Positions 3,005 to 36,200 of a stretch of 64,000 nucleotides of DNA are shown here, one piece after another. The stretch comes from Rhizaria sp. SCN 62-66. Taxonomy: Eukaryota. Made by a program: the position numbers and the translations under genes. The stretch spans positions 1-64,000 of the forward strand of contig MEDY01000320.1 in NCBI GenBank assembly GCA_001724265.1, in the 5' to 3' direction. Position 1 is the first letter of the stretch; each line of letters starts with the position of its first letter. The notes under the pieces are model-generated. The model ran no database searches. It was given only the letters and a program-made list of their open reading frames with translations, and was not told the origin of the DNA.

Positions 3005-4954
3005 ATGGATCAACTGTCTTCAGCTGTCGCCCGTGTTGAGGCTAGTTTTGACACGTGCTTTAAGTTGGCGGAGGATAACAATGGGCGATTTCTTGCCGTC
3101 GCCCAGCTCATTCGTCCTTCACGGCGTAAGATTGCCGCCTCTTTGCAGCGCACAACTGTGAGCATGTCGTTGGCGGACCAACTGGCTTTCCTTAGCACGC
3201 CTCTTTCATCGTGCCCGCTCGTCTCAAAGGCGCAACCACGTGCTCCTTGGCCAGAAGGCGTGAAGCCTCCGACACTCTCTGCCACGTTCGCGCCGTGGGA
3301 AGGGCTTTGGAAGCTTATCTGCTCAAGCATGACGCAGAGCTCTTTACAATCATCCTCGCCCGTTGACGTGGCTGACGGCGCCGCGTTGCTGTTGTCCCTG
3401 TGCATGGACATGCTGCGCGTGGCCACGACAACGACACAGGCTGCGCTCGACTCATCACCCGCGCTCCGCATGCGCGCCACTCCTGCTCCCATCCAACCGG
3501 CCTTCCCGTCCCGCCTATGGTGCGACTGCGCTGACGTCGCGCTTGCCGCCTGCGCCGCGCTCGCCGCCAGCGCTGCCCCCGCGCCGCGCGCGCTCGCCGC
3601 CGCTGTGGGCGCGGAGCTGCCCCTGCTCGCATCGCTCTCGACGCTCGAGCACCTCGAGCTCTACCTCGCCACTGCGAACGTGGACGCCGCCGCGCGCTTA
3701 GACGCCGTTGTGCCGCCTGTGCTCCCGCGGTTTACCAGCGCGGCAGCCTTCTTCGCGCGCTTCAGCCGGCCCACGCCGCCCCCGCGCGGCGCGTGCCTCG
3801 TGTCCGACACCGCCGCGGCCGCGCTTGCTGCCTGCGAGGCGGGCGCCACGGCGCGGCAACTGCGGCAGCACGGCATGGCCGTCTTCCCGGGCGCGCTACC
3901 GCCGGCGCTGGCGGCGCAGTGGCGCGCGGCCGCCGTGGGCGAGCTGGCCCGTCTGCTGACCCGCGTGCACGCACACGCTGGCCCCGCGGGCGCGGCGCTG
4001 CGGTCGCGTGCGCTCGATCCGCGCGGCGGGTTCAGCGAGGTCGTGTACCGCTCGCGCGGGCGCTTTGACGTGCGGTCGGTCGCCGTCGTGCGCCCCGCTA
4101 TTGAGCGTCTCATGGCCGCAGCAGACCGCGCCGAGGCCACGCGCAAGGGCAAAGGGTCCAGCACGCAGAGCACTGCAAGCGGCGATGACGCAAAGAGCGA
4201 AGTGAAGAAGAGCGGCGCGAACAGTGAGGATTGTGGCACGGAGTTCGACGGCGTGCCCGCGTGGCTGTGGGCGGTGCGCGAGGTGCTGGGCGCTGACGCG
4301 CGGCTCCACTTCGCGGGCTGCGTCGTCGCGCTGCCGGGCGCGGAGCCGCAGCAGTGGCATCGCGATGGCGGTTCGCTCTACTCCGTCGCCGAGCTGGCGC
4401 GCGCGGCCGCCGTGCCCGAGGCGGCGCTGGTGCCCGACGCCTCGGCCGCGTTCGCCTTCCAGGTCTTTATCCCGCTCGTGGATCTGGACGTCGGCAACGG
4501 CCCCACGCAGTTCATGCCCGACACCCACCTCGCGCCGGAGTTCGCCAAGCTGGACCGCTTCTACGACGAGGCGCGCGCGCTCGCGGCCGCGCCCGCGGAC
4601 CCGCGCGCGCGCGTGGCGGCGGGACCCGTCGTCGTGGCGCCGCTGGGCCGCGCGGGCGACGCTGTGATCATGGACTACCGCACCATGCACGCCGGCGCCG
4701 CCTACCCGCGGTCCGTGCAGCACGGCGACGCGGAGTGGAGCAGCACGCCCGCGGAGCAAATCAAGCAGGCGCTGGACCGGCTGCCGCGCGCGCGCCCGCT
4801 GCTGTCACTGACGTTTGCCAAGCCGTGGTGGCGCGACAGCCACAACTACGAGAACCCCTCCATCAATGAGTTTATCGCCGAGGCAGAGAACGCCAAACAA
4901 AACACAGCGGCCAACGCAAACACTGCTTCAAGCACAATGACTACCTAGAGTTAA
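3005..4954 (+). CDS. Phytanoyl-CoA dioxygenase (PhyH)-like Fe(II)/2-oxoglutarate oxygenase
   Basis: Motifs QQWHRDG (HxD), GPTQFMPDTH, GDAVIMDYRTMHAG (distal His) and RPLLSLTF. The standard code ends at TAG 4946-4948; with UAG read as sense the gene ends at TAA 4952-4954 (ACC TAG AGT TAA). Confidence 0.8.
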
Positions 4955-5211
4955 TTTAAGATTTAAAATCAATCATACGGAATAATTATTTGTATCTGCT
5001 AACAATACACAAGTAGTATCTCATTCATACAATTGTATTGTGGAGCCATGAAACGTCTTGCAAATCTAAGTAGTATCTCCGAAGTTTGTTGACAAAACTG
5101 CGAGAAAAGGACAAGACAGAGTTAAGGCTGATTTAGACACAAATCCTCCCACAAATCCCCCCAAATGTTCTAAGTAACATAGTATTCGTAAGAGAGCGCG
5201 TGGCCGCCGCA

Positions 5212-8137
5212 TCAGTCGTAGATGTTGAAGTGGTCGTTGTTCTGGTGCGAGCGCAGCTTCTCTCCGACGACGCGGTGCACAACGCCCTCCTTGGGCCCCG
5301 ACCGCGCGGACGCGGACCGCGGGTTCTCGCGCGGGCGCGCCGAGCCCTCGCGCTTGCTCGCCGCCGCGGCCGCGGTCTCGCGCGCGTCGCCCGCGCGGTC
5401 CTTCTTGAACAGCGAGCCCAGTCCGACGGGCGCGCCGACGAAGCAGCGCTTGCCGTAGCGGTCGACGTGGCAGTACGGCCCAGGTTCCGTGTGCGCGGGC
5501 GGCTCGCGCAGGTAGAACCGCGCGTCGCCGCCTGCGGGGCCCTCGGCGCGCGCGCGCAGGTGCGGTCCGTGGAGCCCGCCCGCGTGTTGCGTCGTCAGCG
5601 CGGGGGACACGGCGACGACAACGCGGGGCTGCGCCGCGGCCTGCGCGCGCGTGCCCGCCATCGGCGTGTATACGCGCGACGAGACCCAGGGCTCCGCCAC
5701 GCCGCCCGCCGCGCCTGAGTTGTGGCCGTGCCCGTCGTAACCGTGACCGTGCCCGTGGCCGCTGTGGCCACCGCCGTTATAGCCGGTGTCGTAGTCATCG
5801 CCGTAGTCGCCGCCGTCGTTCAGCGGCACGAACACGGACTGTTGCTGCTGCTGTGTATAGCCGTAGCCTGCGTCGCCGAGCCCGCGGTGCGCGTGGACGC
5901 TGCCGCAGCCGCTGTCCCCCGCCCCATTACTATGCGGTGCGGGCGTGATGATACACCGAGCGGGGCCCGGGCCGTAGTCCTCGAATCCTGGCACCGGCGC
6001 CCACAGCGTCTGACTCTGCATCTGGCTCTGCATCTGACTCTGCGCCTGCGCTTGTGCCTGCGCGTATGTGGGTGCTGTGAGCACGATGCCGCGGCTCTGA
6101 TGCTGCTGCTGCTGTGCTGACACGGGCACGGCTAAGAACGCCGGCTCCGGCGCCGCCGCCGCGGGTGGAGGGCCCGCCGCGGCCGAGTGCGAGGGGTACA
6201 TGTGGTTGTGCTGCGCCGCGCGCCGGTGCTGTTGCGCCAGCATCGCGCGCCGCTGCTCCCCGTTCAGCGGCGGCGTCGCGGCGGCAGGGCCGGAAAGGGG
6301 GGAGGGAGCACCGCGGCGCGCGCGGCTGCCGGGCCGCGTGATCGTCACCGGCGGCGACGGCGCGCGCACCGGCACCGCGCGCGGCGGCGTCTGCGCACGC
6401 TGCTGCTGCTGCTGCGGCTGACGGCCACGGTTTTGAGTCGGGGTGACGGCGACGGCGACGCGTTCCGGCCGCGCTCCCGGCCGCGCCAGCGCCATCTGCG
6501 TCTCTCCAGCGGTAGCGGGGCCGACAGTGGGCGCGGGCGAGGGCTGGTGGCGCATCCCAGCTGCAGGCTGCTGCTGGGATCCTGACTGTGCGTTGGCGCG
6601 GGCGGCCATGGCGGAGGCGTTGCGCTGCAGCGGCCGGTTGACGTCCCGCTCCCACCGGTCATCACCCGCGCCGTACGCATTGGAAGCAACGGCGGGACCC
6701 ATCAGCGCGGCCGCGACGCCGCCCTCCGCCGCAGCCCAGGCGCGGTGGGGGTCGGCGCCCGCGGCGGGCGCGGCCCAGCCCCCGACCGTGGGCTGCGCGG
6801 CGCCGACCACTGGGTTCGCCGCCTGCCACGCCTGCGCGTGCAGCAGTGCGGGCGCCGCGTTGCCCGCAGCGTAGCTGCTCGCGTACTGCGGCGTGGCAGC
6901 CCGGCCGTTGTTCGTCCTGTTGCTGTTATTGTTGTGGTGATTGTTAGAGGACGGGTGGCCCCACCAGGGCTCGCTGTCGGCGGTGCCGGCGCCCTCGGTC
7001 TGCGCGCGCGGCGGCACCGGCGCCGGGGCCGCGGCGGCGGCGGCCAGCGCGGCGGCCTCGGCGCCGTCCAGCACCCACCCGGCAGGCGCGGCGTGCGCGC
7101 GCGCGCGGGCGCGGGCCGCGGGGCCGGCGGGCGCGCCGGGGGGCAGCCCGGTCACACCAGCGGCGCCTGATCCGGGACGCGCGGCGCCGAAGACGGCTGC
7201 GGCGGGGACTACGGAGGTGTCTGCGCCAAAGGCCTGCTGCTGCTGGCGGCCGTAGTGCTGCGCGGCGAGCTGCTGCGGCGCCGCCAGCGGCACGGGCGTG
7301 GGGATATACACCAGCGGCGTGTGCGGGGTCGCGGGCCGCTGATGCTGCTACGAGGCTTTGACCTGCGCCACTGCGGGCGGCCGGCCCGCCACGTGCGCGG
7401 CCCACGCAACCGCTTCGTCTGACTGCTGCTGCTGCTGCTTGCTGCGGGCGGCGGAGGCGACGGCGGCGGAGAGGAAGGCCTGCTGGTTGTACTGGTTCTG
7501 CGGCGGCGCGTGGGAGCCTGTGGCAACGGCGGGCGGCGCGGCTGTGGGCGCGTAGGGCGCCGTGTGCGCGTGATTATTGTCGCTGTAGTTGTTGTAGTTG
7601 TTGTAGCTACTGTTATCGGCGATGTAGAAGGGGCGTGACGCGTCGCCCCCGCTGCCGGGTCGCGCGGCGACCGCGATCACGGGCCCCGCAAACGGCACGA
7701 GCTCGGAGCGCGGGATCGCCACTGCGCCGGTGTTGTGGGCCGACGGGGCGGCGTACTGAGGTCCCTGTGGCTGCTGATACTGTTCGCTTTGACCGGGAGC
7801 GGGGGCCCAGACGGGCTGCCAGGCCTCGACCATGGGGTCCAGTGCGGGGGCAGCGGCTCCGGGCGCGGGCTGCCACAAGGATAACGCGGGGAGCACCTTG
7901 TGCAGCTTGACGGGCGGCACAAACGACGGTACAACCGTTTGCGACGGCTGCGGGGAGAGAGAAGGAAAGAACGAGAAGGAAGTGAAGTGAGAAGCGTGAG
8001 GTTACGCGAGTCATAGCGAGGTATGAAAAAGCAACCAAGAGCAGTAAATAGCGCGGGAGTAAAGAACGTACCGTGGCCACGCGCGGGTTAATCCATCCGC
8101 CGTATGCAGGAATGGGTGTCGCGCCTGTTGAGGCCAT
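5212..8137 (-). CDS. Hypothetical Ala/Pro/Gln-rich protein, about 933 aa; exons 8137-8072 and 7947-5212; one internal TAG at 7348-7350
   Basis: ATG at 8137, then a phase-0 intron 8071-7948 (GTACGT...pyrimidine-rich...CAG). ORFs 7348..7920 and 5212..7311 share a frame and are separated only by a TAG (VKAS*QHQRPATPHTPLVYIP). Ends in TGA. Confidence 0.75.
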
Positions 8138-8807: not shown

Positions 8808-10313
8808 ATGGGCAACACTTGTAGCGCTGAGGGCGCTTGTTGCGCGAGTGATCCTCGTGCTGGCCTTGACCCGTCCGCCTCGGTGCCTGAGGAGACGCAC
8901 AACGCGGCCCCCACGCCGCGCCAGACGGGCGCCGCCTCGAACCCCGCCGCACCGCCCTCCAACGCCGGGGGCGCGGCGCCCGGCGCGCCCGCGGGCGCCG
9001 AACCCCCCGCCGGCGGCGCCGCTTCTGTGGCGCCCCGCGCGCCGTCTGTGGCGCCTGGCGCCGCGGCGGCGACCGCGAGCGCGTCTGCGCTGCCGCCGCC
9101 CGGGCCGCACGAGCCGAAGCAGTTCAGCAAAACGTTCCGCATTCTGCTGCTGGGCGCGGGCGAGTCCGGCAAGACGACGTTCACGCAACAGCTGTCGCTG
9201 ATCCACAACATCAACCAGATCTCTGAGGAGGAGCGCAAGCGCAACACGCTGCAGGCGCTACACGAGAACGTCATCCAGTGCATGTCAGCGACGGCCGCCA
9301 ACGCCATGCGCCTGGGCTACTCGCTCTCACAGGAAGAGGCGGAGAAGCTCGACGCGATCAAGACTGCGCCGAAGCTCGACCGCATTTTCGCCGAGGACGT
9401 GCTGCAGCTGTGGAACACCGAAGTGATGCAGCGCTCGTACCAGCAGAAGAACAAGTACTGGGTGCTCGACACAGCCGAGTGGCTCATCGCCAACGTCACG
9501 CGCTTCGCCGATGAGGCGTACTCGCCGACGCGCGAGGACATCATCCTGTCGCGCCGCCGCACCACGGGCATTACTGAGCACACGTACATCGTTGACGATA
9601 CGGCTTTCACGATCATCGACGTCGGCGGCCAGCGTGCAGAGCGTCGCAAGTGGGTGCAGTTCTTTGCCGACGTTCACTGCATCGTCTTCTTCGTTTCGGC
9701 CATCGGCTTCTGCAAGGTGCTGTTCGAGGACCGCAACACGTACCAGATGAAGGAAGCGCTGGAGCTATTCTCGGCGACGTTCCGCGTGCCCGCGCCGCAG
9801 ACGGGGCCACGCATCGACAACGACTGGCAGGACTACGTGTTTGAAACAACACCCATCCACGTCGTCTTCAACAAGATGGACATGCTCGAGGCCTCGCTAG
9901 GCAAGCACAACCTCTCGTCGTGTTTCCCGTCGTATAAGGCGCAGAACCTGCCGGACCCAGTGATGCAGTTCCTGCAGCAGACGTTCGTGGAGCGCGTGTC
10001 GTCGATCCGCGCGCCGCCCGACTTCCACCGTATCTCGGCCACCAACGAGGCCGATGTGCACGAGCTTTTCTCCAAGATCTCCAACTTCCTTGTCGAGAAG
10101 GAAAAGGCCGGCATCGCGCTCAACATGTTCATGCAGGTGGAGAAGCAGCGCGAGAAGGATGCGGCCAACAACCCGCGGTCGCCGCCCGCCGAACTCGCGC
10201 GCCAGCGCACCCGCCAGAACCTCAACGGCGGCGGCAAGGACGCCGAGCAGGACAAGAAGCGCAGCCGCCAGCGCATGAAGCGCATCCAAGAGCTCATGCG
10301 CGACGGCTCATGA
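8808..10313 (+). CDS. Heterotrimeric G-protein alpha subunit with N- and C-terminal extensions
   Basis: G-box motifs GAGESGKTT, RRRTTGI, DVGGQR, NKMD and SAT; N-terminal MGNTCS (myristoylation-type) with nearby Cys residues; ends in TGA. Confidence 0.95.
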   Translation: MGNTCSAEGACCASDPRAGLDPSASVPEETHNAAPTPRQTGAASNPAAPPSNAGGAAPGAPAGAEPPAGGAASVAPRAPSVAPGAAAATASASALPPPGPHEPKQFSKTFRILLLGAGESGKTTFTQQLSLIHNINQISEEERKRNTLQALHENVIQCMSATAANAMRLGYSLSQEEAEKLDAIKTAPKLDRIFAEDVLQLWNTEVMQRSYQQKNKYWVLDTAEWLIANVTRFADEAYSPTREDIILSRRRTTGITEHTYIVDDTAFTIIDVGGQRAERRKWVQFFADVHCIVFFVSAIGFCKVLFEDRNTYQMKEALELFSATFRVPAPQTGPRIDNDWQDYVFETTPIHVVFNKMDMLEASLGKHNLSSCFPSYKAQNLPDPVMQFLQQTFVERVSSIRAPPDFHRISATNEADVHELFSKISNFLVEKEKAGIALNMFMQVEKQREKDAANNPRSPPAELARQRTRQNLNGGGKDAEQDKKRSRQRMKRIQELMRDGS

Positions 10314-12453: not shown

Positions 12454-14346
12454 TTAAGTGGAGGGCGCAGAAACGATGAGCTTGCCCTTCTGCGAGCGGT
12501 TGGAGAAGTTGTTGTTGCGCGAGCTCATGTAGGGGTAGAAGCCCGCCTTGGTGATCTGCATGAGCACGCCGCCGGCCAGCGACGCGGGCGCGTTGTTCAT
12601 CGCGGCGTTAATCTGCGTCTTGGTGCCGGCCTCGGCGACGGACGAGTAGTAGCCCGAAGTCGCGAGCACGAGCGCGCAGTTGACGTAGTCGGTGTCAGTG
12701 CCAAGGCGCGTGGTGCCGTCGAGCTCCCAGCACTTGGTGTGCTTGAACATGTGGTCCTTGGCGATGTCGAGCGCGATGGGCCAGTTGCCGCCTTGCTCGT
12801 CGGTGAGGACGAAGTTGATGCGGTCCGTGCCGCCCTGGCCCTGGCCGTCGTCGCCAGTCTGGCCGTCGCCACCGGGGGCGCCGTTGTTGTGCGTGTTGGA
12901 GCCAGTCCACTGCATGTGGATGAGGTCGTCAGTGGTGACGCGGAGGTCGTTGCGGACGAAGTCATACTCAACGGAGGGGAACGTCTGGACGATGTTACCA
13001 CGCTTGCCGCGGGTGTTAAAGTTCACAATGCGCTTGCCAGCGAGCGCGGTACCACGCTTCTTAATGAAGAACGTATGGGTGCGGTCCTGGAACGTGCGGC
13101 CGACCTGGGCCGTGTTGAGTGCGAGCTGGAGACCCTGGAGGTCGGCGCCGATGTCCACGGTGGGGTTGTTCTGCACAGGGGACTTAGCGCGGTTCGACTC
13201 GGCGTCGATGTTCCAGCCATCGTAGTCGTCCGAGGTCATGTTATAGCGGATGCGCATCACGCACTTGACCATGTCGTTGTTCGCGCCGTACGTCTTAAAC
13301 TTCTGCGTCGTGACGAGCTGCTCCCAGGTGGGGAGAGTCCAGGTGTAGTTGGCGGGAGTGCCGTCGCGGCCGTCGCCGAGGTGGTTGTCGCGCGACCAGT
13401 CGGCCTGCTTGCAGTCGGGCTTGGGGATGCCGAAGCTGGCGACCTACTCCCATTTGCCCTCGTTGGCCTTGCACGCCTCCTCGTTGTTGTACTTGGCCTT
13501 GGTGGCGTCCGTGATGGGGCCGCAGCGGAACTTGTCCTTGACGTTCTGGGACTCAGTGCCAACGTAGTTGCAGATGTCGATGTTCTGGTCGCCAATGGCC
13601 GTGGTGAGGTAGGCGATGTCGCGCCAGATCGTGGGCGTCCAGTACGGGTAGTAGTCGCGCTCCTCGGGGCACTCGAGGCCGGAGCGGCCGCCGTTGTTGT
13701 TCTGGCGGGTGTAGATTGCAGAGTCGCCGTTCAGGTTGCGGTCCGCGGTGAAGAGGCCCTTGTTGCGCTCGCGAGTCTGGCACAGGTAGTAGTTGTGTTC
13801 GTTCTCGTGGCGGCCGCGCTTGTTGTTGTCGTTGCTGGTCTTGGTGGTGGTGGCGCCAGCGAAGGTGCCCGATGCTTCGGGGGTGCCAGTGTTGCCACCG
13901 TTCTGGAGCGCAACCTCGAGGTCCTTGGTGTCGTCTTTCTGCGTGGCAGTGTCGCAGGTGTACTGCAGCACGACGTTACAGTTGATGTTGTAGGGGTCAG
14001 TGCCGTCGTTACCACCGCACGAGTGCTGGGTGGTCCACTGGTGGAGGAGCTCGGAGCCCTCGTAGTACACCATCGAGTACTGCTGCTTGTCGTTGTTGGC
14101 GCGCGAGAACACGGTCGTGAGGTCGGGTCCGGGGTTGCCGCCATCGAAGGCCTCGTTGGTCTTGTCACCGACGTTGAGGCCACCGCGCGCGTTGTTCTGG
14201 GTGTCCATCAGACGGTTGTTGTTGTCGCGGGTCGCCGTCTGCTCGTTCAAACGGTTGTTAGAACCACCGGTGAGGAGGTAAACATCGGCCAGGGCCGCGG
14301 GAAGCAGCCCAAGCACCAGCGCGAGCACAGCAACGTGAACCCTCAT
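12454..14346 (-). CDS. DD3-3-like secreted protein (630 aa) with one internal TAG at 13444-13446
   Basis: Signal peptide MRVHVAVLALVLGLLPAALA/DVYL; family motifs GSNNRL, ECPEERDYYPYW, RDNH, NTAQVGRTFQDR, RGKRGNIVQ, IQWTGS-like and RNNNFSNRSQKG. Two same-frame ORFs join through one TAG (KWE*VASFGIPKPDC) and are colinear with the neighbouring paralog. Ends in TAA. Confidence 0.88.
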
Positions 14347-15132
14347 GACTGGGACTGTGTTGGAAGCAACGCGAATAGTGGAGCAGACAAGGAGAGGGAG
14401 GGGGCAGAAAAACAAGTAATAGAAGGCACAGATGAGTGAAAATTGGTCGAGAACTTCCAGAGGTGAAATAAAAGAGAGATTTCTTCCAGCTTATTAAAAA
14501 TTCAGACGTGTCTGGCGAGATGGCTATCCGCTGGAAAGGCTTAAAGAGAGGGGACAAAGTGAGAGGCCTCACCCTTCGAGGGGAGTTCTGAGGAAATCCA
14601 AGAAGAAGCAAAAAGAGGTCCCAGAGCGCCGGTATTGCGACAAAAAAGATTGGAAGCGTCCTAAACAAATAGTTTTACCATTACATATCGCGTAAAGTGT
14701 GCGTTGACGAGGCAAATGGCCCCGACGCGGGGCGCTGAATCGCTCCTTGGAGGGCCCAAGCGCCCCTTAGTCGGTCTCGAGCTCACTCGCGAGCGGCCCG
14801 CGCCTGGCGTGCGCGCGGTCGCCAGCTCCCGCGTGCCTGCCTGGCCCCCCTTCGCCCGTCCTCCAGAGCCCCTTAGACGAGACGAGCGGCCCGCCTAAAA
14901 CGCGTTCAAGCGCTGCTCGGGCTCACTGCGTTGAATTGTGGGTTATTTTATCGAATGTGAATATTAGGGATGTGTCATATTTTTAAATTTTTGACTCGCC
15001 CTAAGGCGTTATTGTCTCGCTTGGCACCCTCTTCTGAGGGGGCCAAGTCCCTCGGGCCCTCCTCTCACCAAAGCTCTTCCTTTCGCCCCCCTTTTCTCGG
15101 GACCCCCGACCTTTTTCACATCCTTAGACCCG

Positions 15133-17640
15133 ATGAAGTTTGTTTCTACCTTTATCGTGCTGTCCCTCTGGGCCTACGCGGCCCTGGCGGACACTTACCT
15201 GGCGAACCCTCGTGGTTCTAACAATCGGTTCGTCCTTCATCGTCCCCCTTGACTCCCCATCTTGCTCCCCCACTCCACGCTCTCTCGCCGGTCGCAACAG
15301 ACTTGCCCCAGAGTCACAATGCGCATATTCTCTCATTCACTTTCTTGTCTTTTCAACCATGCCTTTTTTTCCCGGCGCACACTTAGTCTGAAGGGCCAGA
15401 ACCGCAACCGCAACAACGACAACCGCCTGTTCGACGACCAGAACAACAACCGCGGTGGTTACAACGTCGGCAACATGTACTACTATGAGGGCTCCATCTT
15501 GTCCGTCGAGTGGACTGCGCAGCACAGTTGCGGTAACGCTAACAACAAGTGCGAGTTCGTGTTCCAGTACATGTGCGAGAACCTCGTCCGTGACGGTACC
15601 GAGGAGACAACGATCCCGGCCAACAACGCTAACTGCCTTAACAACGACTGCGACACGGACCCGCGCTACGGCCGCCACGAGTCGTACGGCTACTACGACA
15701 ACTGCATCAAGCGCGAGCGCAACAAGGGCCTGTTCCGCGGCACGCAGAACCTGAACAACCGCAACACCGCGCGCCACACGCGCCAGAACGCGGCCGGCAC
15801 CCGCTACGGCTACGAGTGCCCCGAGGAGCGCGACTACTACCCGTACTGGGGTCCGTCCCCGTGGCGCGACGTCGCCATCTTCACCAACGAGCCCCAGCGC
15901 TGCGCCGCCTACGCCACCGAGTCGCAGAACGTCAAGTCCCGCTGGTACTGCAAGGTGCCCGAGATCTACTGGACGCTCTACCCCAATGCCGGCCAGCGTC
16001 CCATCCCGATCGCCGAGGACACGTGCGCCGCCTTCACCATGGTGAACCCCGAGACGCAGGCCAACGAGACGGCTGTGTGGACCGAAGTGTCCGCGTTTAA
16101 CCTGCCCGCGCCGCAGTGCCGCCAGAACCTCTTCACGCGTGACAACCACCACGGCAACGCGGTCGGCGGCCAGACCTACAACTTTAACTGGACCATCCCG
16201 GCCATCCCGCACGAGCGCTGCGTGTTCCGTCTCCGCTACAACATCACCACCGACGACTTCCCCGGCTTTGAGTCTGCGACGTCGATCCAGAGCTCGTACG
16301 TCAACGCCGACCTCTCTGGCCCCATCGGCGGCGGCGGCGAGGCCAAGGTGCCGATCTGGGAGAAGTTCGGCGTCTCCCAGGCGGAGGCCAAGACGCGCGG
16401 CTACGTGCTGCAGGGCAACCCCGAGGTGGACATGTTCGGCTCGCTGCTTACTGGCGCCGCCGCCGGCAAGGTGAAGCTCCAGCTTAACGTCAACACTGCG
16501 CAGTTCTCCCGCACGTTCGAGGACCGTTCGCACCGCTTCGCGATCCGCGCGCGCGAGGGCAACTACCCCGCCGACGCGACCATCTACAACCTCAACGTGC
16601 GCGGCAAGCGTGGCAACATTGTCCAGACCTATCCGGCCACCGAGTACGACTTCGCGCCCTCGCGCCTTGTCGCGAGCCAGGGCGACTACGTGCACATCCA
16701 GTGGACCGGCTCCAACGCCAACCCGCAGAACAACGACGGCCAGGGCCGCGCCGGCACGGACCGCTCCAACATGGTCGGCCTCGTCCGTCGCAAGTACACT
16801 GAGGCGCCCGAGAACAACCGCATCACGACTGTGGGCACTCTGGGCACCAACATCCCCAAGCGCCTCGGCGTCGACCTCAACTTCCTGGGCTGGTCCAACG
16901 AGACGCTGGTGCAGCTGGCGACTCTGTCGGCGCCCGGCGGCCAGTTCGGCGGCGATATGACCGAGTTTGACGACGCCGGCACGTACTTTGACATGGCGCC
17001 CCGCATGCTGGGCCGCATCGGTGTGTTTAACTACATGTGCACGCGCAACAACAACTTCTCCAATCGCTCGCAGAAGGGCGCCATCATCGTGTCGTTGGAC
17101 CGCATCTCGTCCGAGGTCATCGGCTGGAACGGTGGCGAGATCCAGGGCAAGGGCCGCAACAAGCTCATGGTCCCCGAGGGCGCCTTCCAGTCTGCACAGC
17201 TGCTGTCGCTCACGGTCGTGCCCGCGCACACGCTTGACTCGTCGCGCGGCGAGTCGATTGCCGACCTTTCCTCGGACGTCGTCGTGCTCGCCGGCGCCGT
17301 TGGTGCCAGCAACATGCTCGGCAACATGGTCAAGATCACCATCGGCCACGACGCGTCGCCGCTCGCCGACACCCACATCACCGTCGCCGACACGCTCGCG
17401 GGCCCCTGGACGCGCCTCGCGACCAGTGTGAGCTCCGACACCGCGTCGGCGTGGACGGACCGCGCCGGTGTGTACGCTGTGCAGTCGCCGCTTAAGGTCG
17501 GCGCCATCATCGGCATTGTCATCGGCGGGCTGATCCTCATCGCCGCGGGCGTCTTCCTCATCATCTACTGCAAGAAGAAGGCCGACGCCGCCGCCACGGC
17601 CGCCTACTCTGACTCCCTCAACGGCCCTCAGAACGCGTAA
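15133..17640 (+). CDS. DD3-3-like type I membrane protein (about 782 aa); exons 15133-15227 and 15387-17640
   Basis: Signal peptide MKFVSTFIVLSLWAYAALA/DTYLANPRGSNNR; phase-2 intron 15228-15386 (GTTCGT...TTAG) restores SNNRL; same DD3-3 motifs as the paralog; C-terminal hydrophobic helix VGAIIGIVIGGLILIAAGVFLIIYC followed by KKK; ends in TAA. Confidence 0.9.
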
Positions 17641-22796: not shown

Positions 22797-24724
22797 ATGC
22801 CTGGCCTAGCTGCTGACTCGAGCCGTCGGAATCTGACTGGCCGCCGCGCGACGGGGGCCCAGGAGGAGGCCGATACCGCTTCTGACGCAGATGAAGTCCA
22901 AGTCGATGACGTCAACAGCGACGGTGAAGGCGACGAAGGTGACGAGGACGAAGAAGATGACGAAGACGAGTCCGAGGAGGAAGAAGTCATCGTGCCCCGC
23001 GTCCTGCCTCAGCGCCACAACCGTGGTAACAAACTCGCCAAACTCATCCAAGAGGGCGAGGATGAGGACGAATTTTGGGATCATTTGAAGGAGTACTTCG
23101 TCGAGAATGCGAACGACTCTGATTTCGAAGCCGATGGTACGTCAGGATGCCTACAACGATTGAAAACTGTCTTAGTATAATCCAATCTCTTACACCCCTT
23201 GCCACTTACCAGGTACTTGCACACTCCTTCGGAGGCTTTCATGCGAGTACCGCTGCTGGTGGGGGGAATAGCAACAGTTCCATGTTGGGCTCTCGTCTTT
23301 GTGGGGGTTTTCTTCACGCTCGAGGGCCCCGTGTGGGGCCGAACGGTCCTTAAATCTTCTTTCATGGTGGTGTTTGCGTTCGTAACCCGAACGTTGCAGC
23401 ACTTACCGGAGCCTGTCAGCCTGTCACTTGAAAGCAAATGAGTCATAAGCGTTCTACATTCTACTATCTACACACTATATTACTATGAAGTTTGCACTCT
23501 CCTCGACCAATGTCTCACTTGATCTCATTCTTTCAACCTGCTTTGTTTTTTCTTACGTTTACAGAGGAAGAAGACCTCGTCGACGACGACTTCGACGCCC
23601 CCGAGGAGCCCCCCGGCGACGACGATGACGACAACGACGGCACGGTGGGCGTGGCGGGCGATAAGTCCCTGCAGCGCGACGACCGGAAGCAGGCCAAAAA
23701 GCCCGCTCCCTACGTGGACCCCAACCGGGGCAAGAAGTCCCTCTCGGCGCCTGTTCCGCTCACAGCCGCCGAGAAGGAGGCCGCCGCCGCGGCCGCCAAG
23801 TCCGCCCGCGCGGCGCGCGCGGCCGCGCTGGCCGCGGACCGCGACCACTCAGCGCCCGCGGACGGCATCGCGGGCCACCGCACGCAGCGCAAGTCGGCCG
23901 CCAAGGCTCAGGAGCGGCGCGAGCAGGACCGCGCACAGCAGGACGCGGCATTCGCGGCGCGCGCTAAGGCCCGCGGGCTCACCAAGGAGGAGCTGCTGGC
24001 GCGGCAGCGCGACCGCGCCCAAGTGGTGTATCGCATGCTGACGCAGGAGGAGCAGCTGGAGCAGGCCAAAATCACCGAGGTGCTCAACCGCAACTCGCTC
24101 GAAGAGCTGCTGCGGATCGAGGAAGCGCAGAAGAGGATCACCGTGCGCAAGCGCGGCGTCGTCGGCGCGGCCATTTTCCTCCGCGACCGCGCCGGCGCGT
24201 CGACCGTCGCGTTCAAGTACTGCGCGCCCTTCGACTACGCGCGTTCCCCCGACTCGCCCGCAGTCAGCTCCAGCGCCAGCGTCGGTACCGGTGCGCATCA
24301 CGGTGGTCTCGTCAACGTCGAGCCCGAGTCGTCGGACGCACCCTTCGTGCCGCCCGCGCGGCGCCGCCGGCTGGCGCCGGGCCCGCTGCCGTGCTTCGTC
24401 ACGGGCGCGCCCGCCAAGTACCGTGACCCAGTGACGGGGCTGCCCTACGCCACGGCCGCCGCGCTGCAGACACTGCGCCAGCGCGTGGCCGCTGCCGCCG
24501 CTGATGGTAACGGCGCTGGCGCCAGTGAGCTGCTGCAGGCTTATGAGGCGCGCCACTTCGCGCCTGTGCCCACCGCCGAGGCGCTCGCTGAGGCTGATGC
24601 CGCCGTGGCGGCCGCTGCTGCTGGCCAGGCGCACGCGCAGATGGAAATGGCCGACCACGACGACGCGCGCGTCGCCGCCGCCAAGGCCGGGCACGGGCGC
24701 GGACGCAAGGCCAACCCCAAGTAA
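22797..24724 (+). CDS. VPS72: VPS72/YL1 (SWR1/SRCAP complex H2A.Z chaperone subunit); exons 22797-23136 and 23565-24724
   Basis: LPQRHNRGNKLAKLI, EDEFWD..F.E..DSDF, LTQEEQLEQAKITEVLNRNSL, and the YL1-C motif CFVTGAPAKYRDPVTGLPYA. A phase-1 intron 23137-23564 (GTACGT..ACAG) joins the two frames. Ends in TAA. Confidence 0.9.
23195..23436 (+). ncRNA. Candidate intronic structured RNA (H/ACA snoRNA-like)
   Basis: Three GC-rich hairpins inside an otherwise AT-rich intron: GGTACTTGCA/TGCGAGTACC (23212-21/23242-51), GGGCTCTCG/CGAGGGCCC (23287-95/23321-29) and CGTTCG/CGAACG (23377-82/23388-93). An ANANNA box (ATAGCA, 23268-73) lies 16 nt after the first upper stem. Confidence 0.45.
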
Positions 24725-26807: not shown

Positions 26808-26825
26808 CCCCCCCCCCCCCCCCCC
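26808..26825. repeat. C18 homopolymer
   Basis: Seen directly, in an AT-rich intergenic region. Confidence 0.95.
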
Positions 26826-27265: not shown

Positions 27266-30200
27266 TTACCACCGTGACGTTACGAAACCCTGCCGAGCGC
27301 CGTCGATGCCAGCCTTCTTCTGCTGCTGTTGCTGCTTGCTCAGCTGCTCCTGGTGTTGCTGCTGTTGCGCCGCGCCCGGCCTGACAACCGGTGGGAGTGC
27401 GAGCGGGACGGCGTAGCGCGGCAGCGCGCTGGCAAGCGACTGTACGACCGGCGCCGCTGGCAGATTAGGAGCCAGCGCGGGCAGCGACACACCCTGAAGC
27501 TGCTGATGATGCTGCAACGGGTGTTTGCTGTCGGAAACATAGGCCGTGACGGGCAGGAAGCGCCGCTGCGCCGCGGTGGCAATGAGCTGCGGCGTCGCGC
27601 GGACGCGCCGCACAAGAGGCTCCTCCGGACCGATGGCAGCTGCTGCGGCTGCAGGCGCAGCGGATGACTCGGCCATCTCTGGCACGGCGTCGCATTGCTG
27701 CTGTTCCTGCTGCTGCTGTTGGAGAAGCTCGTCGCGCTGGCGTTGCTGCGCAGTGATAAAGGCAAAATACGGATCCACCGAGCTCACCGTGGGCAGCGCC
27801 GAGCGCGCGCTCTGCGGGGCCGCAACCGCCACAGCCGCTGCGGCCGTCGCCGGGCCAAGCGTGGGCCCCGCGGTGTGGACCGCCTTGAGCGGTGCCGCAG
27901 TCACCGCAGCTACTGCCCCGGCAGCGGCGGCCTGTGCGCGCAGGTCGATGAAGCGCTCGAGTGAGGCCAAGTCGTCGTACAGAGCAGGATCTGCCCAGTC
28001 GACGCCTGCAGGGTCCACCAGGACATCACCGCGCGCCGGAGCACCTTCAGTGGTAGCGTTACCGTCGGTGCTGCCGTCGCTGTCGGCGGCTGTGAGCTTG
28101 TGGCGGAGGTGCGCGGCGGCGACGTCCTGGAGCACGTTGGCCACAGCAGCGTTGCGGGCCAGCTCGCCCAGCATCGCGCCCTTGTCCGCCCAGTGACCGC
28201 GCGAGCTCCTAACTACCGCGGCCGCACTGGGCACAGCGGTGGCGCCAAGGAGGCTAAAACCGTCGCGCGCCGTGAGCATCTCCGCAACGCCGCCCGCGCC
28301 CGGCGGCAGCACGGCGTCGAGGTGGTCGAACTCGTCGCCGCGCATCGACTCAGACAGCGCGACAGGCGGCGCGTCGCGGAGCTGACGCATGCGCGCCGCG
28401 GCGGCATCGGCGGCCTCGCGCCGGCTGTGTAGTCGGCGCAGAGCCTCGCGCGCGGCCACTGACGGCTGCTGTGAGAGCCGCGACAATGACGTCGCGACGG
28501 TTGCACTGCCACTGACAGCGCCGCTGTCTCCGGCTGTCTCAGCGCCTGAGAACTCGCCCCAGTCGTCCGCGCCGTCGCCCCAGCCGCCGCCGCCGCCGCC
28601 GGCCTCCATGCCTGCGGTGCCCGCGCGGCCCGCGCGCGAGCGGCCGCGGCTGCGGAGGCGCTCTATTTCGCCGCGCGCGGTGCCCGTAGTCGCCACCGCA
28701 TTGGCCACGGAGTTGGACGCGTACATAACGACGCCGTCGGCCGCGCCGTCGCCGTAGCACGAGCCCGCGGCGGCGCAGCCGCCGCTCGCGGGCCCACGCA
28801 GCACAGCGAGCTCAGCCTCGACAGCGCGCACCTCGCGCTCGTACACGCCGACAAGTCCTTCCAGATCGAGCAAGTGCGCGCGGTAGAGACGCCGTACGAG
28901 TGGGGGCAGCCCAGCGTCGCCGCTTGTGCCGCCGCGCAGCCCCGCTGCGTGGGCCGCGGGAAGCAGCCCGCCCATGCCGCGCGCCGCGAGGGCGGCTGAG
29001 AGCATCGCAGACACGTGGGCGGCGTCGGCCTCGTCCGAGCCCGCGGGCAGCAAGCCCAGCGCGGACAGCGCGTCCTCGCCGCCGGGAACCGCGCGGGAGT
29101 TGGCGACGGCGTTCAGCAGCACAGCGCGGCCGCGCGGGCCCGCGCGCTGCAGCGCAGCGGCGTACTAGTTCGCGAGTGTGGCGTCTGCACGCAGCGCGCG
29201 CAGCGGCACGCGCGCCCATACGCCCGACGCGCCGTGGAAGAAGGCCGGGCGCGCGCCCATCATGCCGCCCTCGGCGCCGCCGCGGCGCGCGCGCGCAGAG
29301 GCTGCGGCGGCCTCGGCTGCTGCCACAGAGCGGGGCACAGCTACGCGGTAGTTGCGGCCTTCGGACGTATACTCAGGCCCACGGTTCAGCGGTAGCATGA
29401 ACAACGGCAGCCCGTCGGGACCCAGCCGCAGCGGCCTCGGGCGGCGACGGTTTCGGTTTGAGTCGGAGTTTGAGTCGCCACTCTCCGTCTCCCAGTCATC
29501 GTCGTCGTCCTCGGTGTCGTGGCGGTGACGGCGCCGGCGCTTGGGCTAGCCAGGCGAGCGCGGGCGCGCGTCGACCACGTGCGACGGCACCTTTGCGCGC
29601 ACGCGGCTGTAGTCAGTGCTGTTTACGTTCATGCTGCGCGCGCGTCGTGAGCGGCGACTAGAGCCATCGCCGCCGTCTTCTTCGCCGTTATCGTCACCGT
29701 CGGCGTCACTGTCCGAGTCGTCCGCCGAGCTTTCGCGAGCATGGCGGTTGCGGCGGCGACGCTTTCTCCGGTTGCTCGCCAGCGGCTTGTTAGGGTCGGG
29801 CCGCAGTCCGGCGGCGATCTCGATTTCCCTGCAGCGGCGCTCGAGCTCGCGCTCCTCGTCCTTGCGTTTGCGCTGAGCGGCACGCGCGCGGCGGTCCTCC
29901 GCGTCGTGGTTACGCTGACGGCGCTCGATCACGCGCTGCTCCATCTCCTTGCGCACATGCTCAAGCCTGCGCTTTAACGAAGCCTCCTTGAGCTGCGCTT
30001 GCGCACGCTTGGTATCCTCGTCCGCGAGCGCGGCCTCTTGCGCAGCCTCGCGGCGCTGACGGTAGGCGTCGAGCACGCGCTCACGCTCTTCACGTCGCGC
30101 GCGCTCCGTGTCGCCCCAGCCGCTGCCGCCGCCGCTGCTGTGCAGCCCGCCGCGCGAGTCGAGCCGCGTGCCGCCGGGCGAGCGCAGCGCGTCTCTGCCG

Positions 30201-33200
30201 TCGCCGCGCTTGCCGCCGCGGGAGCCAGACGGATGCTCGTCGTCATCGTCGTCTTCCGAGTCGGTGAGCGCGCGCCCGTCGGGGCCAACGCGGCGACGGT
30301 GACGACGACGGCGGCGGCGGCGGCGGCCGGGAGGTCCGCCCAGCAACGGCATCCAGATCTGCGTCTTGCGCACAGTTACAGTGCCATCAGTGTTGACGCG
30401 CACATCGTCGGGGCCTGCGACCCACTCGCCCTCCTCCGCCGCGCCCGTCGCGGAGGCGCCGGGGTCCGAGGCGGGGTCCTCCTCCCACTCCCAGTCCTCG
30501 TCGTCATCCTCGCTCGCCGGCCCGCGCCCGCGACGCATCTGCAGCCGCTCGGGTGACGCGTACGAAGACATCTCATCTTCGTCGTCGTCAGCGTGCGGGC
30601 CGAGGCGGCGGCGCAGACGGCGGCGGCGCAACTCCTGCCCGGCCGCGACGGCGTTGTGCGCGAGCGCACCCGCGCCGTCCTCGTAGATGGAACTGCTGTC
30701 GGATAGGTAGTCGCTATCGTCTTCCTCGTCCTCGCTGCTGCCGGGTGCAAAACCGTCGAGTGGGTTCACAGGCCGCACGCGCCGCCGCTGCGTCGCCTCG
30801 TCCAGCGCGCGGCGCCGCGACGCGCGCGCAAGGCGGTCCAGGGCCGCAGGACTGGCCTGGATCTCGCCGCGACCAGAGCCCGCGCCTGCGCTCGCGCCGG
30901 CTTGACCGGCATGCTTGAGCGCGCGCAGGGCTAGCGCGGCCATGCCCGCGCCGCGGCGGCGCGCAAATGTGGCGGCGATCTCGCGCGCGTCGGGCAGAAT
31001 GGCGCCAACGATAAGCTCGTCGAGCTGCTGTAGCGCGGTGGGCGTTGCCAGTGCGCCGGCGAACGCCGCGGGGCCGTGGCCTGCCGCGGGCGCCGAGTTG
31101 AACACGCTCACGGCCGGCGCGCGCAGGGAAAAGACCGGCACGGGCGCTGGGTGGCGCGCGAATGACGGCGCTGCGCAAGTGACAGTGAGCGTAACCGCGA
31201 GCGCAGGGTCCGACACGGCGAGCGCGGCGGCGTTGCTCGCGGTTCCCGGCGCGGCGTTAGGCTGAGCACGGAAAAACGACGCCAACTTGCCACCCGCAGC
31301 GGGCGCCGCAACTGTGGCTACGTCACCGGATGCCGCCGGGGCCGCGGCAGAGGCGGCACGCGAGCGCGCGTCGTCCTCGGCGATTGCGGCGGCGCCCGCA
31401 GCGAGCGCCGCCGGCGTGGCTAGGTCGTAAGGGTCCGCGGTGCCCAGCGCCAACGCGCGGTCAAGCGGCAGCGCCGCCACGCCGCGCTCCCGGCCGCCTA
31501 GCGTGATGCCGGCGCCGCGCCCGCGGGTAGCTGGCTACTGCGAGGCGGCGGGCGCGAGACCCAGCAGCACGGTAGCGGCGGCGGCGGCCACGGCGGCAAG
31601 CGCGCCCTCCGCGGCCGCGGCAGCCAAGTCGAGCGGGGTTTCCTTGAGCGCATAGCGCAGCATCTCGCGGCGGCGCAGAACGTCGCGCACGGCCACGGGC
31701 CCGCGCGCGGGCACCCACCACACGGGCGCACACGCGGTCAGGGGGAGCTCGCCCGCAGCGGGCGCGACGGACGGCGCGGTGGCGTTGGCTGTACTCATCA
31801 GCGCGCGGCGGGGAGAGCCCGCGAGCGCGGCCGAGTGCTGCAGCTGCTGGTGCTGCGGCTGCTGGTGCGCCAGCATCTGCTGCGTTTGCGGCTGCCCCGC
31901 GGCCGCCATCGCTGCGCGTGCGAGTACGAGCGTGGGGTGCGGCAAGTGCAGCGGACCGCGCGCGCGCCACCGCGGCACCAGCGGCGCCAGCGTCAACAGC
32001 AGACGTGCGGGCAGCGCAGCGGCGAAGGCGACGGACGCGGGTGTGCCGATCAGCGCCGCGTTGACCGCCGACGCCGCGGAGGCTGCAGCGGCAGCTGGAG
32101 TGATCAGCTCCATCGCGGCGCCGGGCTTGCCGCGGGGCGGAATGCCGCAGCGGCGCACGGTGGCTGCGCTCATCGCGGCGGCCGCGGCGGCATCTGCAAT
32201 GCGGCGCGCCTCCTCGGCGGCCGCGGCTGCCGTGCGCGAAGCAGCAGCCGCAGCCGAAGCCACGGCGGTCTCCGCGGCGTCGGCGGACAGTGAAGGCAGC
32301 GGCGGCACGTAAAAGACCTTGACGACGGGCGGTGTGGCGGGCAGCGCAGCCAGGGACAGATGCGCGCGCAACAGCGGCAAAAGCGTGTCGCGCGCGGGCG
32401 CGTGCACGGCCGACTGCAGCAGCGCCCACGGAAGAGTGTGCAGCGGCTGCACGGTCGAAACAGCCGGCGCAGCGGGCTCAAAAGGCTGCCCGGCTGCAGC
32501 GGCGCCGGAACTGGCGTTGGATGACGATGACGCAGCAGGCGCGCCGGACTGAGGCTCTGTCGGCGGCAGCACAAAGCTGTGGTAGTGCGCGTACAGGCGT
32601 GCAAGTGGCAGCGGCAGCGGGGGCACGGGGGCCGGTGTAGCGACGTCTGCGGAGCCGCCAGCTGCTGCGGCCGCCGCGCTTGCAGCAACAGAAGCGGCGG
32701 CAGAGGCGGCAGAAGCCTGCAGAGAGGCGAGCTGCGACAGAAACCACTGCACCGCAGGCGCGCCGGCCACGACAGCGGGGTCGTTGCGCGTGAGCGTGAC
32801 TGTGAGCCCACTACGTGGGAACAACAGCGTCGGCTGCGGCTGCGCAAGCGGCGCGAACACGGAGCCCGTGGGCCGCAGCAGCCCCGCGAGCGCGGAGTTG
32901 CGCACGCTCGCAGCGCTGCCGGGCTGCACAGCCGCGAACTGGGCTGTCAATGCAGCGGCAGCAGCGGGGGCCGAGGACTTGGCAGCGGGGCCGCGAGCGG
33001 TGGATTTGGCTCCGCCGCGCGAAGTGGCAGCCTCGGCCGCAGCGGCAACCTCAGCAGCAGGCGCGGCGTCTGAGGCTGCACCAGCAGGCTTCTCCTTGAG
33101 CAGCTGCGTTTGCAGACTCTCCGTCGCCTCGACGGCAGCAGCCAGCGCAGCGGCCAGCTGTGCGTCGCCGCCCGCAGTGCCGTCTTCAGCACCCGCAGCA

Positions 33201-36200
33201 CCAACAGCAGACACGGCGCCGCGCAAGCGGCCCGCGAGCACGAGGTCGAGCACGTCATCCGCGGCCAGACTGCCACGCATGATGTTGAGCGACACGGTGA
33301 CGCGATCTAGTGCCACTGTGAAGGCCGCGCGCGCCTTGGCCCCCGCGGGCGTCTCGGCGCCGCGGTAACGCGCGCGCCAAACACGGTGGAACAGGTTGCT
33401 CTGCGCGGGCGTCAACGCGCGCGCACCGTCGGGGCCGGACGGTTCAGCGGTGCCTGCAGCGGGACGCGGACTCGAGCCGATGGCGTCGTCGCCGCTGTGC
33501 TCACCCTTGTTGGCCGCGGTGGCGGCAACAGCGGCAGCGCGCAGGAGCCCAGCAGCGGCGGCGAGCGATGCGGTACGCTGAAAGGCGGCCAGAGGCCGGA
33601 ACGGCAGATCCGTCGACAACGCAGTGGGCGCGTCGAAGGCAGTGCCACGCGAGATCAGTGCGGCAACAGAGCTAGCCGTGGGCGCGTCGCCGCCGAGACA
33701 TGACGCGGAGCTCGAGAGCGAAGACCGGCCGGGCGAGCCGGGCGACGCGGGACCCATGCCAGGCTCTGACACAGAGATGTTGTTGAGCACCGCGATTTGT
33801 GCGACAGCGGCGACGACGGAAGAAGGCGCGGGGTCTGCGGCCGAGAGCCCGCCGGCAGCGCCAGACAAACTCATCGACGCTGCCAACAACGCGGGTGCAT
33901 CCTCAGTGTCAGCAAAGTCGCCCAGTGCGGCGGCCGCGGCTGCTGCAGCCGCGGAGGCGTGCTGCGTGGGCGGCGGCGGCACACCGCGCGCAGCAGCGTC
34001 GTAAGCCTCGGCCTTGGCCAGCAGAGCGCGCGCCCGGTGCAAGAGCGCGAGCGCGGCGTGAGGCGTGCCAGCAGAGCCCGCGCTCGCGCCGTGGCCGTGC
34101 CGAGAAGACGAAATGGTCGTCACGGGTTCGGGCGCATCGTCTTCGTCGTCGTCCTGCTGGCGCGGCACGCCGTCCTGCGCCGCCCCATCGCCGGCCGCGT
34201 TCGCGGCGGCACCGCCAGCGGGCGCGGCGGGTTGCTGGAACTCGACAAGAAGCGTGCCGCCGGACTCAAAGGCGTGCTTCGCAAACAGTACCCACACGGA
34301 CTCCTCGAGATCTAGCTCGATTGGCCGCGGTAGCGCGACGGAGAGGTCGTACTCAACCGTCGTGACGCCGCCCTTGCCGGCCTTGGTGGACGCAGACGGA
34401 CCGGACCCAAACAGCGCACGCTCGTCCTCGTCGTCAGAGTTCTACGCCGTCGCCGTGGCCTCGAGCTCGGGATGCGGCTCCACAGCAACGGCCATGGACG
34501 CAGTCTCTGACTCGGGCATGGCATAGGCGCTGGAGCCCGAGCCTGCAGCCGCCGCAGCGGCCGCGGCGCCAGGGCCCGAGACAGCAGCCTTGCGCGCGGT
34601 CGCCGTGCGCGCGAGCGCTCCCGCGGGCGGGGCGCGCGCGGCGGCGATGCGCGTGGGCGGGACGTGGTAATGGTCACGTTGCACGGGCTCCACAAGCACG
34701 TCGAGCCACAGTGTCACCGACTGGCCGGGCGCGGCGCGGCGGGCCGAGGACCGCTGCAGCCACGCGGTGAGGAAGCCGGGCGACGCCAGCAGTGGCGCCA
34801 GCGCGCGCGGCGGCGGCGACGGCGGCAGCGCGGCCGCGGGCGGGTGCAGCAGCGACGCCAGGTAAAGCTGGTACTGCGTCAACTGCCCAGCCCAGGCCGC
34901 GGTCGCCGCGACCGTCGCTGCGGCGGCAGCGGCCGCGGGCGAGGCCGCGACGCCCGCGGGGCCCAGCGGGGGCGCGAGCACGCCGGGCACAGGTGGCGCC
35001 AGCGCGGCGAGCGAGCACGACAGCAGCGCGCTGTGGCGGCGAGTGGCGGCCGCGGCGGCGACGGCCGCGGCAGTCGCGGCCGAGGACCGCGCGGCAGACG
35101 CGTAGCCCAGGTAGTGCGTCTCCGCCGCCAGCAGCACTGTGCCGTGGTGGTAGGGGAAGCCCGAGGCATAAACCGCGCTCAGCGCCGCCGCGGCGCCCGT
35201 CGCAGCCGCGGCGGCGCCGGGCAGCCGGCGGTGGCGGCCCGCGGCGTCCGGGGAGACGAGCTCCGCGGGGCGGCTCTGCGGCCGCGTGGGCGAAACGGCG
35301 CCGCTGCGAGACTGGCCAACGGCGGTCCCGGGCGCGGTGCCGGGCGGCGACAGGGGCCCGCCGGCCGTGGGGGTGAACGCGGGCGTGTTCGAGCGAGACG
35401 GCAGGCTTGCGCCCGTCGCCGCGGCGCCGGGGAGTTCGAGCGTGGCGCCCGCGGGCGGCGGCGAAATGGGCCGCGCGGCCTCGACCGCGAGCGTGGCGCG
35501 CGGGGCGGCGCGCGGGAGGTACGGTGGCGCGGAAAGGTGCGAGATCGGCAGCGACACGCAGGGTGCCGAGGCGGGCACGGGCTGATACGGTGGCGGCGGC
35601 GCGCCGTAGTGGCCCGCGGGCGCGAGCGGCAGCGGCGACTGCAGCATGTACAGCCCGTTGAGCGCCGACAAGAACGCAAACGCGAGGTGCCGCGCGTGCG
35701 CGCGCGAGGTCTGCGCGGGGATGAGCTCGGAGAAGCGCGGCAGCGGCCACGCGGCGAGGTCGACCGCCACTGGCGCGGGTGTGCCGTGGGGGCCGTCACG
35801 CGGACGCGGGCCGCGAGGGCCTCCGTGGCCACCACCGGGAGCAGCCGCGGCCGCAGCGGCGGCGGCGGCGGCGACGGCGGCCTGGCCGGCAGCGGAGCCG
35901 CGGCGCACGCCGGCGCCGCGGCCGCCCGCACCGGGGGCGCCAGCGGCGGCAGCAGCGGCGCGTGCAGTGACCGCGGCTGTGGTGAAGGCGGCCACGGCAT
36001 TGCGGAGGTAGTGCACCTGCTCTTGCCTGCGTGCGTTCGAGTCCGCGGCAGCGGCGCGCTCGCTGACGCGCACGGCCGCGGCGATGCGCGACACGAGGGC
36101 AGAGTCTGCGCGAATGAACTCAGCCGTCGACGCAGCAGCTGCGGCAGCAGCAGCGGCCTCTGAGCCCGACAGAGCGGCCGAGGCCGGCGGCGATGCCAGA

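Follow-up and report, generated by a model that had tools for sequence, protein, structure and literature searches.

UAG probably has a sense meaning, while UAA and UGA are stops, in a 64-kb stretch of DNA from a wastewater eukaryote

Nuclear genetic codes in which the meanings of UAG and UAA are uncoupled are described, in the available text of two papers, for the rhizarian exLh, for Iotanema spirale and for three lineages of phyllopharyngean ciliates (PMC5304391, PMC11687900). In Iotanema spirale (Fornicata), as far as that text goes, UAG encodes Gln while UAA and UGA are stops, with UAG making up about 8% of the Gln codons (Panek et al. 2017, PMC5304391). In exLh (Sainouroidea), according to the same available text, UAG encodes Leu, with 384 in-frame UAG codons as the sole internal stops of 71 genes, which terminate with UAA (56 genes) or UGA (15 genes) (PMC5304391). 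For the phyllopharyngean ciliates the available portion of McGowan et al. 2024 (PMC11687900) gives three independent UAG reassignments, to Leu once and to Gln twice, with UAA as the preferred stop. Here, we analyse the in-frame TAG codons in a stretch of 64,000 nucleotides from Rhizaria sp. SCN 62-66 (assembly GCA_001724265.1, contig MEDY01000320.1, positions 1 to 64,000), the whole of which is called the window below. We consider it probable, from the sequence, that UAG is decoded in this organism as a sense codon and that UAA and UGA are its stops, as a first-pass annotation of the window had proposed; the finding then most likely joins the known but rare UAG-only reassignments. A full-text literature search, at the level of its listings, returned no UAG-only code described in a guanine-plus-cytosine (GC)-rich non-ciliate eukaryote or in a wastewater eukaryote.

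It is noted that the TAGs reported in the first-pass annotation are all present. The six on the minus strand read CTA on the plus strand, the one at 4946 lies on the plus strand and is followed by AGT TAA, and the peptide contexts that were quoted around the TAGs are correct (coordinates in Table 1). When TAG is read through, the three interrupted frames become single open reading frames (ORFs) of 873, 630 and 5401 codons. Stop codons were counted in 14 gene models on this one contig, containing 17,470 sense codons. Inside the models, TAG occurs seven times, the one at 4946 included, and there is no TAA, no TGA and no frameshift, in agreement with the first-pass statement; at the ends of the models, TAA occurs nine times, TGA five times and TAG never, which is a small sample. 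The eight TAA and five TGA ends listed earlier match 13 of these models, the 14th being an ORF added here (21796-22266, minus strand). UAA and UGA, which are never internal and always terminal in the 14 models, thus keep their role as stops. Based on this decoding, the ribosome would read UAG as an amino acid and the genes would end with UAA or UGA only. Decoding would depend on a cytoplasmic tRNA that has a CUA anticodon, or on a near-cognate tRNA of very high efficiency, and the partner change would be an eRF1 that recognises UAG poorly. The pattern is like that of exLh, with UAG as the only internal stop codon and with UAA and UGA ends. It is also like that of Iotanema, where the available text describes in-frame UAG only, UAA as the main terminator with UGA also used, and UAG as a minority codon, and like that of the Phyllopharyngea, for which the available text describes a UAG-only change that came to light in metagenomic assemblies, UAA being the favoured stop.

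The evidence for this decoding comes in part from the continuity of the reading frames, which bears directly on another explanation for the two orphan genes, the 873-codon gene and the giant gene of 5401 codons. In that explanation, the TAGs end separate adjacent genes or sit in introns, the long ORFs having been joined by chance. GC-rich DNA does keep many frames open, and several antisense ORFs of 600-900 residues are present in the window. After the 13 true terminators that were checked (the comparison covers 13 genes, without the later-added ORF), the GC content of the next 150 nucleotides is 0.31-0.50 and an in-frame stop is met within 2-68 codons. After the six internal TAGs there is no such drop: the following 150 nucleotides have a GC content of 0.65-0.81, and no further stop interrupts the frame for 127-969 codons. 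In the giant gene, the order of the GC contents of the third, first and second codon positions (GC3>GC1>GC2) is equal in the 60 codons before and the 60 codons after each TAG and is kept in every 300-codon block, with all five pieces in one frame, and the next in-frame ATG after a TAG is 50-198 codons away. The 873-codon gene has a GC3 of 0.85 upstream and of 0.89 downstream of its TAG, from which 216 codons separate the next in-frame ATG. Moreover, no GT[AT][AC]GT...YAG pair is present around any TAG within 300 nucleotides, so that no splice-like GT...AG pair encloses one. From the GC content, the codon periodicity, the distant ATGs and the lack of an enclosing splice pair, it follows that the frames truly run through the TAGs. 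Chance fusion, which in any case is inapplicable to the third interrupted gene, is therefore highly improbable.

The impression of an intron-free genome given in the first pass does not hold. Two GT-AG introns are predicted, neither of them near a TAG, with GC contents of 0.47-0.53 and pyrimidine-rich 3' ends, and the YL1 profile of Pfam is matched over its positions 2-39 by exon 1 and over its positions 42-222 by exon 2. Judged by these predicted introns, the genome is intron-poor rather than intron-free.

The second line of evidence comes from the only TAG that lies inside a conserved gene, that at 13444. The product of this 630-codon gene has a signal peptide and is a member of a very large eukaryotic family, which we take to be DD3-3-like, some sources labelling its members 'plastocyanin'. 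Among 8000 scored proteins, 2266 are homologues with E<=0.001, the best having 77% identity over 97% of the query. The TAG is in a gap-free stretch that is spanned by all of the 32 aligned full-length homologues, and the protein of the window keeps every invariant column on both sides of the TAG, e.g. from C312 to K620 downstream. Relative to the nearest orthologue (P0001/L001, 77% identical), the identity is 75% upstream and 78% downstream of the TAG, and the ratio of nonsynonymous to synonymous substitution rates (dN/dS) is 0.29 upstream and 0.23 downstream. The downstream value of 0.23 points to purifying selection on the part after the TAG and implies that this part went on being translated while the two lineages diverged. 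Note, however, that the DD3-3-like gene alone cannot settle the matter, because a very recent nonsense mutation would be invisible to dN/dS.

A number of observations weigh against the decoding of UAG as a sense codon. The evidence base is one contig, with one conserved gene for the comparative test; only one of the seven TAGs is in a gene with homologues, and of the others one stands at a gene end and five are shared between two orphan genes of low complexity. The DD3-3 orthologue of the relatives is without a TAG, and the trait is so far seen in this organism alone. ARAGORN, which was run on the window only, gave no tRNA gene, and eRF1 is absent among the Pfam-annotated genes of the window. 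No RNA piece among those listed bridges a TAG, which leaves room for editing or splicing at the RNA level. The TAG at 4946 occurs at a real gene end and may function in termination. From the position-specific composition, about 162 TAGs are predicted in 16,338 codons, where seven are seen; UAG, at 7 per 17,470 codons, is thus about 23-fold under the composition, an avoidance less expected of a sense codon that is fully established. Finally, the restriction to TAG can arise by mutation. Under the off-frame stop composition (TAA 174, TAG 292, TGA 880) the probability that six of six internal stops are TAG is about 1e-4. A fairer null is that of nonsense mutations in this GC3-rich codon set, where CAG, GAG, TCG and AAG are abundant and A-ending codons rare, so that TAG would account for 68-70% of the new stops, giving a P(6/6) of about 0.10. 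On its own, the TAG-only pattern is thus a weak argument, and the case is carried by the frame continuity, the conserved gene, the intact tail of the giant gene, the absence of frameshifts, TAA and TGA, and the missing TAG terminators.

The high share of TAG among new stops in this codon set favours the alternative that the TAGs are ordinary nonsense mutations under the standard code, in the form of recent pseudogenes or of truncations tolerated in the consensus of a metagenomic population. Such an origin would also agree with the location of five of the six internal TAGs in orphan low-complexity genes without homologues, and in the DD3-3-like gene a very recent stop would leave dN/dS unchanged while the neighbouring paralogue could cover for the loss of the gene. 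By contrast, six such mutations would be needed in three genes, yet there are 0 frameshifts and 0 TAA or TGA in the 17,470 codons. In the tail of the giant gene, 2.1% of the substitutions create a stop, and three further stops there imply about 143 substitutions; decay of the tail would be expected to bring several indels. Yet the tail stays open for 2391 codons without a frameshift, the off-frames holding 36-43 stops, and it is therefore not in neutral decay. The TAGs are also found outside the source assembly, in part: in run X3, from a different study, the pieces 28507-30453 and 30997-32754 are identical to the window with 0 differences, by which the TAGs at 29165, 29546 and 31535 are confirmed in independent DNA, while no listed piece of the four runs bridges that at 13444. 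In addition, if TAG normally makes up 20-25% of stops, the chance of finding no TAG among 14 terminators is about 2-4%. We thus regard ordinary nonsense mutation as quite unlikely.

The scarcity of TAG had been ascribed in the first pass to GC pressure favouring CAG. This does not explain the deficit, because TAG itself ends in G. A young reassignment, inefficient decoding and residual termination are each compatible with the scarcity, and, with UAG about 23-fold rarer than the composition predicts, the reassignment would be recent or UAG would be decoded inefficiently. In this respect the window is unlike Iotanema, UAG here being only about 1% of the Gln codons if it encodes Gln, and unlike exLh, with about 0.5 UAG per gene here versus 5.4 per gene there. 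The option of residual termination stays because of the TAG AGT TAA at the end of the PhyH gene. The GC content of the 150 nucleotides after this TAG is 0.30, so that the site is a true gene end, and the TAG fits equally well as a sense codon two codons before TAA or as the terminator itself.

UAG could accordingly be ambiguous, acting as a stop near the true 3' ends of mRNAs and being read through internally by a natural suppressor or a near-cognate tRNA, which would resemble, as far as the available text on them goes, the context-dependent codes of Condylostoma, of karyorelict ciliates and of UAA in Blastocrithidia. The position of the TAG at 4946 and the depletion, which is expected if the codon is still costly, are consistent with such ambiguity. 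However, the other 13 gene ends are TAA or TGA, so that at most one of the 14, in what are few genes, could use TAG; efficient readthrough would be needed at every one of the six internal TAGs, of which one gene alone has four; and their six downstream contexts have no readthrough motif in common. Ambiguous decoding is hence unlikely in our estimate. If UAG is indeed read as sense, an early phase of reassignment would be observable here, with a low codon density and with the codon mainly in fast-evolving proteins.

Another way to keep the standard code is editing of the mRNA, with UAG changed to UGG (Trp) by adenosine-to-inosine (A-to-I) editing or to CAG by U-to-C editing. A DNA pattern of TAG only is what restorative editing leaves. 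In the available text of two studies, fungal A-to-I editing prefers U at position −1 and often edits UAG (PMC11156358), and in Fusarium graminearum 71 'pseudogenes' with premature stops are restored by A-to-I editing (PMC10776026). The ascomycete system, so far as described there, is alike in having genomic in-frame TAGs within otherwise intact genes. As for RNA, in the poly(A)-RNA run X7, where carry-over of DNA is possible, the pieces 30115-30473, 31189-31476 and 31744-32047 lie within the giant gene downstream of its first TAG and, like the other listed RNA pieces, bridge none. On the other hand, the editing described for ascomycetes acts on RNA and yields Trp, a residue that has the lowest likelihood of all at the one comparable site (0.001 versus 0.39 for Glu). 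There is also no hairpin-loop signal: the mean unpaired probability of the central A is 0.79 in the TAGs versus 0.73 for the A of CAG and GAG controls. Moreover, editing of this kind is known from the sexual stage of ascomycetes, fungi to which the G-alpha matches do not link the organism, and editing leaves the absence of TAG terminators unexplained. We therefore consider editing very unlikely.

The comparable site just mentioned, the TAG in the DD3-3-like gene, is also the one that bears on the amino acid. Its column is variable, containing among the 32 homologues eight Gly, six Ala, three each of Glu, Lys, Ser and Thr, two each of Gln and Pro, and one each of Leu and Asn. The nearest orthologue has GAG at the site and the paralogue in the window has an aligned Glu. 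The site likelihood (fixed tree, LG+G4, 34 sequences) is 0.39 for Glu, 0.17 for Gly, 0.11 for Asp, 0.07 for Ala, 0.05 for Lys, 0.05 for Gln, 0.006 for Leu and 0.003 for Tyr, which as a single-site likelihood puts Glu over Gln by about 8:1. The earlier assignment of UAG as probably Gln is not upheld by these values. Glu would be at least as likely as Gln, with one site too few to decide, and Leu and Trp appear unlikely as the inserted residue. The Gln residues beside the TAGs, 3 of 36 flanking residues versus about 5% overall, are uninformative. By analogy, precedent points to Gln, as the commonest outcome in other lineages. Thus, unlike in Iotanema, where the residue is Gln, the one informative site here favours Glu, and unlike in exLh, Leu is unlikely here and the contexts of the TAGs are polar or disordered.

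Codes in which Glu is the inserted residue are those of the peritrich ciliates, where UAA and UAG both encode Glu, and of one ciliate in which UAG is reportedly Glu with UAA as Lys. To our knowledge, UAG as Glu has otherwise been reported only alongside a reassigned UAA, and we know of no nuclear genome in which UAG is Glu while UAA and UGA stay stops. If UAG is Glu here, the amino acid matches that of these codes; unlike in them, where UAA is also reassigned, most genes here end with UAA (9 of 14), which never occurs internally. The same assignment of UAA and UAG to Glu is given for Blastocrithidia nonstop in the available text of PMC12153298. The narrower proposal that UAG alone has become Glu while UAA and UGA remain stops, as a still young change of independent origin in a deep-branching GC-rich wastewater eukaryote outside the ciliates, fornicates and sainouroid rhizarians, is put forward tentatively and is possible rather than probable. 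If the residue is Glu and UAA is still a stop, the codon table would be one not yet described; if UAG is sense, whichever the residue, the window would add a further, independent case of the uncoupling of UAG and UAA, from a very GC-rich non-ciliate genome with rare UAG.

With regard to the host, DNA of the window, whole or in part, is found in 10 runs from 7 studies, one run being the probable source. The samples are bioreactor, wastewater and activated-sludge metagenomes, from which the window is taken to belong to an uncultured eukaryote. Eukaryotic nuclear gene families are recognised in the window with Pfam, and Rfam gave 0 matches in it. Across the 64 kb, the GC content alternates between 60-75% in gene-sized blocks and about 45-55% in the spacers. 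The genes are long, with 70-75% GC, and the spacers between them reach 2.7 kb, which is unlike a ciliate-type genome. Unlike Iotanema, the window has G-alpha, PhyH and cytochrome-b5 reductase genes, the 70-75% GC of its genes and an occurrence in wastewater metagenomes. The closest relatives of the G-alpha are 56-78% identical, the next best only 31-36%; the named distant matches, at about 33% identity, are from Dictyostelium, Anaeramoeba, Plasmodiophora and Ectocarpus. A scan of genome contigs with the G-alpha alignment gave one weak bacterial locus (34% identity, E 7e-6), which was not taken as a relative, and an Atlas search with the cytochrome-b5 reductase returned generic eukaryotic clusters alone.

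A scan of metagenomes with the DD3-3 protein of the window gave 0 matches, and one with P0001 gave 80 loci. Among these, L001 (2.6 kb) is the sole close relative, and L002, with four good genes, is a relative at 54% identity. The five genes of relatives that were read (one on L001, four on L002) all end with TAA, that on L001 at 2355-2357, and have no internal TAG; they show a preference for TAA and say nothing on UAG there. As for the arrangement of these genes, the two DD3-3-like paralogues of the window (12454-17640) are 34% identical and lie head to head, and the pair adjoins the G-alpha gene. In the closest relative, the G-alpha and DD3-3 orthologues are on one 9-kb contig, the synteny being kept, and the more distant L002 (6387-11845) also has two divergent DD3-3 copies.

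The five TAGs of the giant gene and the 873-codon gene are without comparator homologues. The giant gene has LRR_6 repeats in its N-terminal 3009 residues, followed by an Ala/Arg/Asp-rich tail. A HMMER search of 1.84 billion representative proteins with its residues 3901-5100 gave 4 matches, all of them its own pieces, and the 873-residue protein gave one database match, its own 699-residue piece starting after the TAG. In public protein collections, these genes are present as pieces split at the TAGs, with 644, 618, 77, 405 and 699 residues (P0245-P0249). The standard-code proteomes of the lineage are thus fragmented, with the practical consequence that gene prediction with the standard code breaks up the proteome of the lineage at TAGs.

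Table 1. Features of the window discussed in the text
Feature	Position	Strand	Remarks
First gene of the window		+	ends TGA
PhyH dioxygenase	3005-4954	+	Pfam PhyH domain; ends TAG AGT TAA
TAG AGT TAA	4946..4954	+	end of PhyH-domain gene 3005-4954
Orphan Gln/Ala-rich low-complexity gene, 873 codons	5212..7833	-	ends TGA
In-frame TAG	7348..7350	-	codon 162 of the 873-codon orphan gene
Heterotrimeric G-alpha	8808-10313	+	Pfam
DD3-3-like secreted protein gene, 630 codons	12454..14346	-	ends TAA
In-frame TAG	13444..13446	-	codon 301 of the DD3-3-like gene; only TAG inside a conserved gene
Second DD3-3 paralogue	15133..17640	+	first exon 15133-15227, then intron; no TAG; ends TAA
Predicted GT-AG intron, 159 nucleotides	15228-15386	+	in the second DD3-3 paralogue
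Four-PH-domain protein	18295-20847	-	Pfam
Small ORF, 156 residues	21796-22266	-	GC3 0.75; ends TAA; without Pfam family
YL1	22797-24724	+	Pfam; exon 1 at 22797-23136, predicted intron 23137-23564
Predicted GT-AG intron, 428 nucleotides	23137-23564	+	in YL1
Giant gene, 5401 codons, four TAGs	27266..43471	-	ends TAA
In-frame TAG	29165..29167	-	codon 4769 of the giant gene
In-frame TAG	29546..29548	-	codon 4642 of the giant gene
In-frame TAG	31535..31537	-	codon 3979 of the giant gene
In-frame TAG	34442..34444	-	codon 3010 of the giant gene; GC of next 150 nucleotides 0.65; open for 969 more codons
Cytochrome-b5 reductase	43977-44885	+	Pfam
RIX1-domain protein	51564-55511	+	Pfam

Some further observations on the window are recorded here. 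The 3' flanks of the genes are marked by an abrupt fall of the GC content to 0.31-0.50, and TAA is strongly preferred as the gene end (9 of 14) despite a GC3 of 0.74-0.90, A making up 5.8% of the third positions. In run X7 and in run X4, which has a divergent strain, a contig joint at 22964-23617 skips 652 bases with the ends GA..GG. This joint does not match the predicted YL1 intron and was left unused as support for it; it may be the acidic-repeat region of another organism, or a variant. Finally, the small ORF at 21796-22266 on the minus strand coincides with the stretch where the cover of run X5 is heaviest (contig depth 222) and may be a highly expressed small gene.

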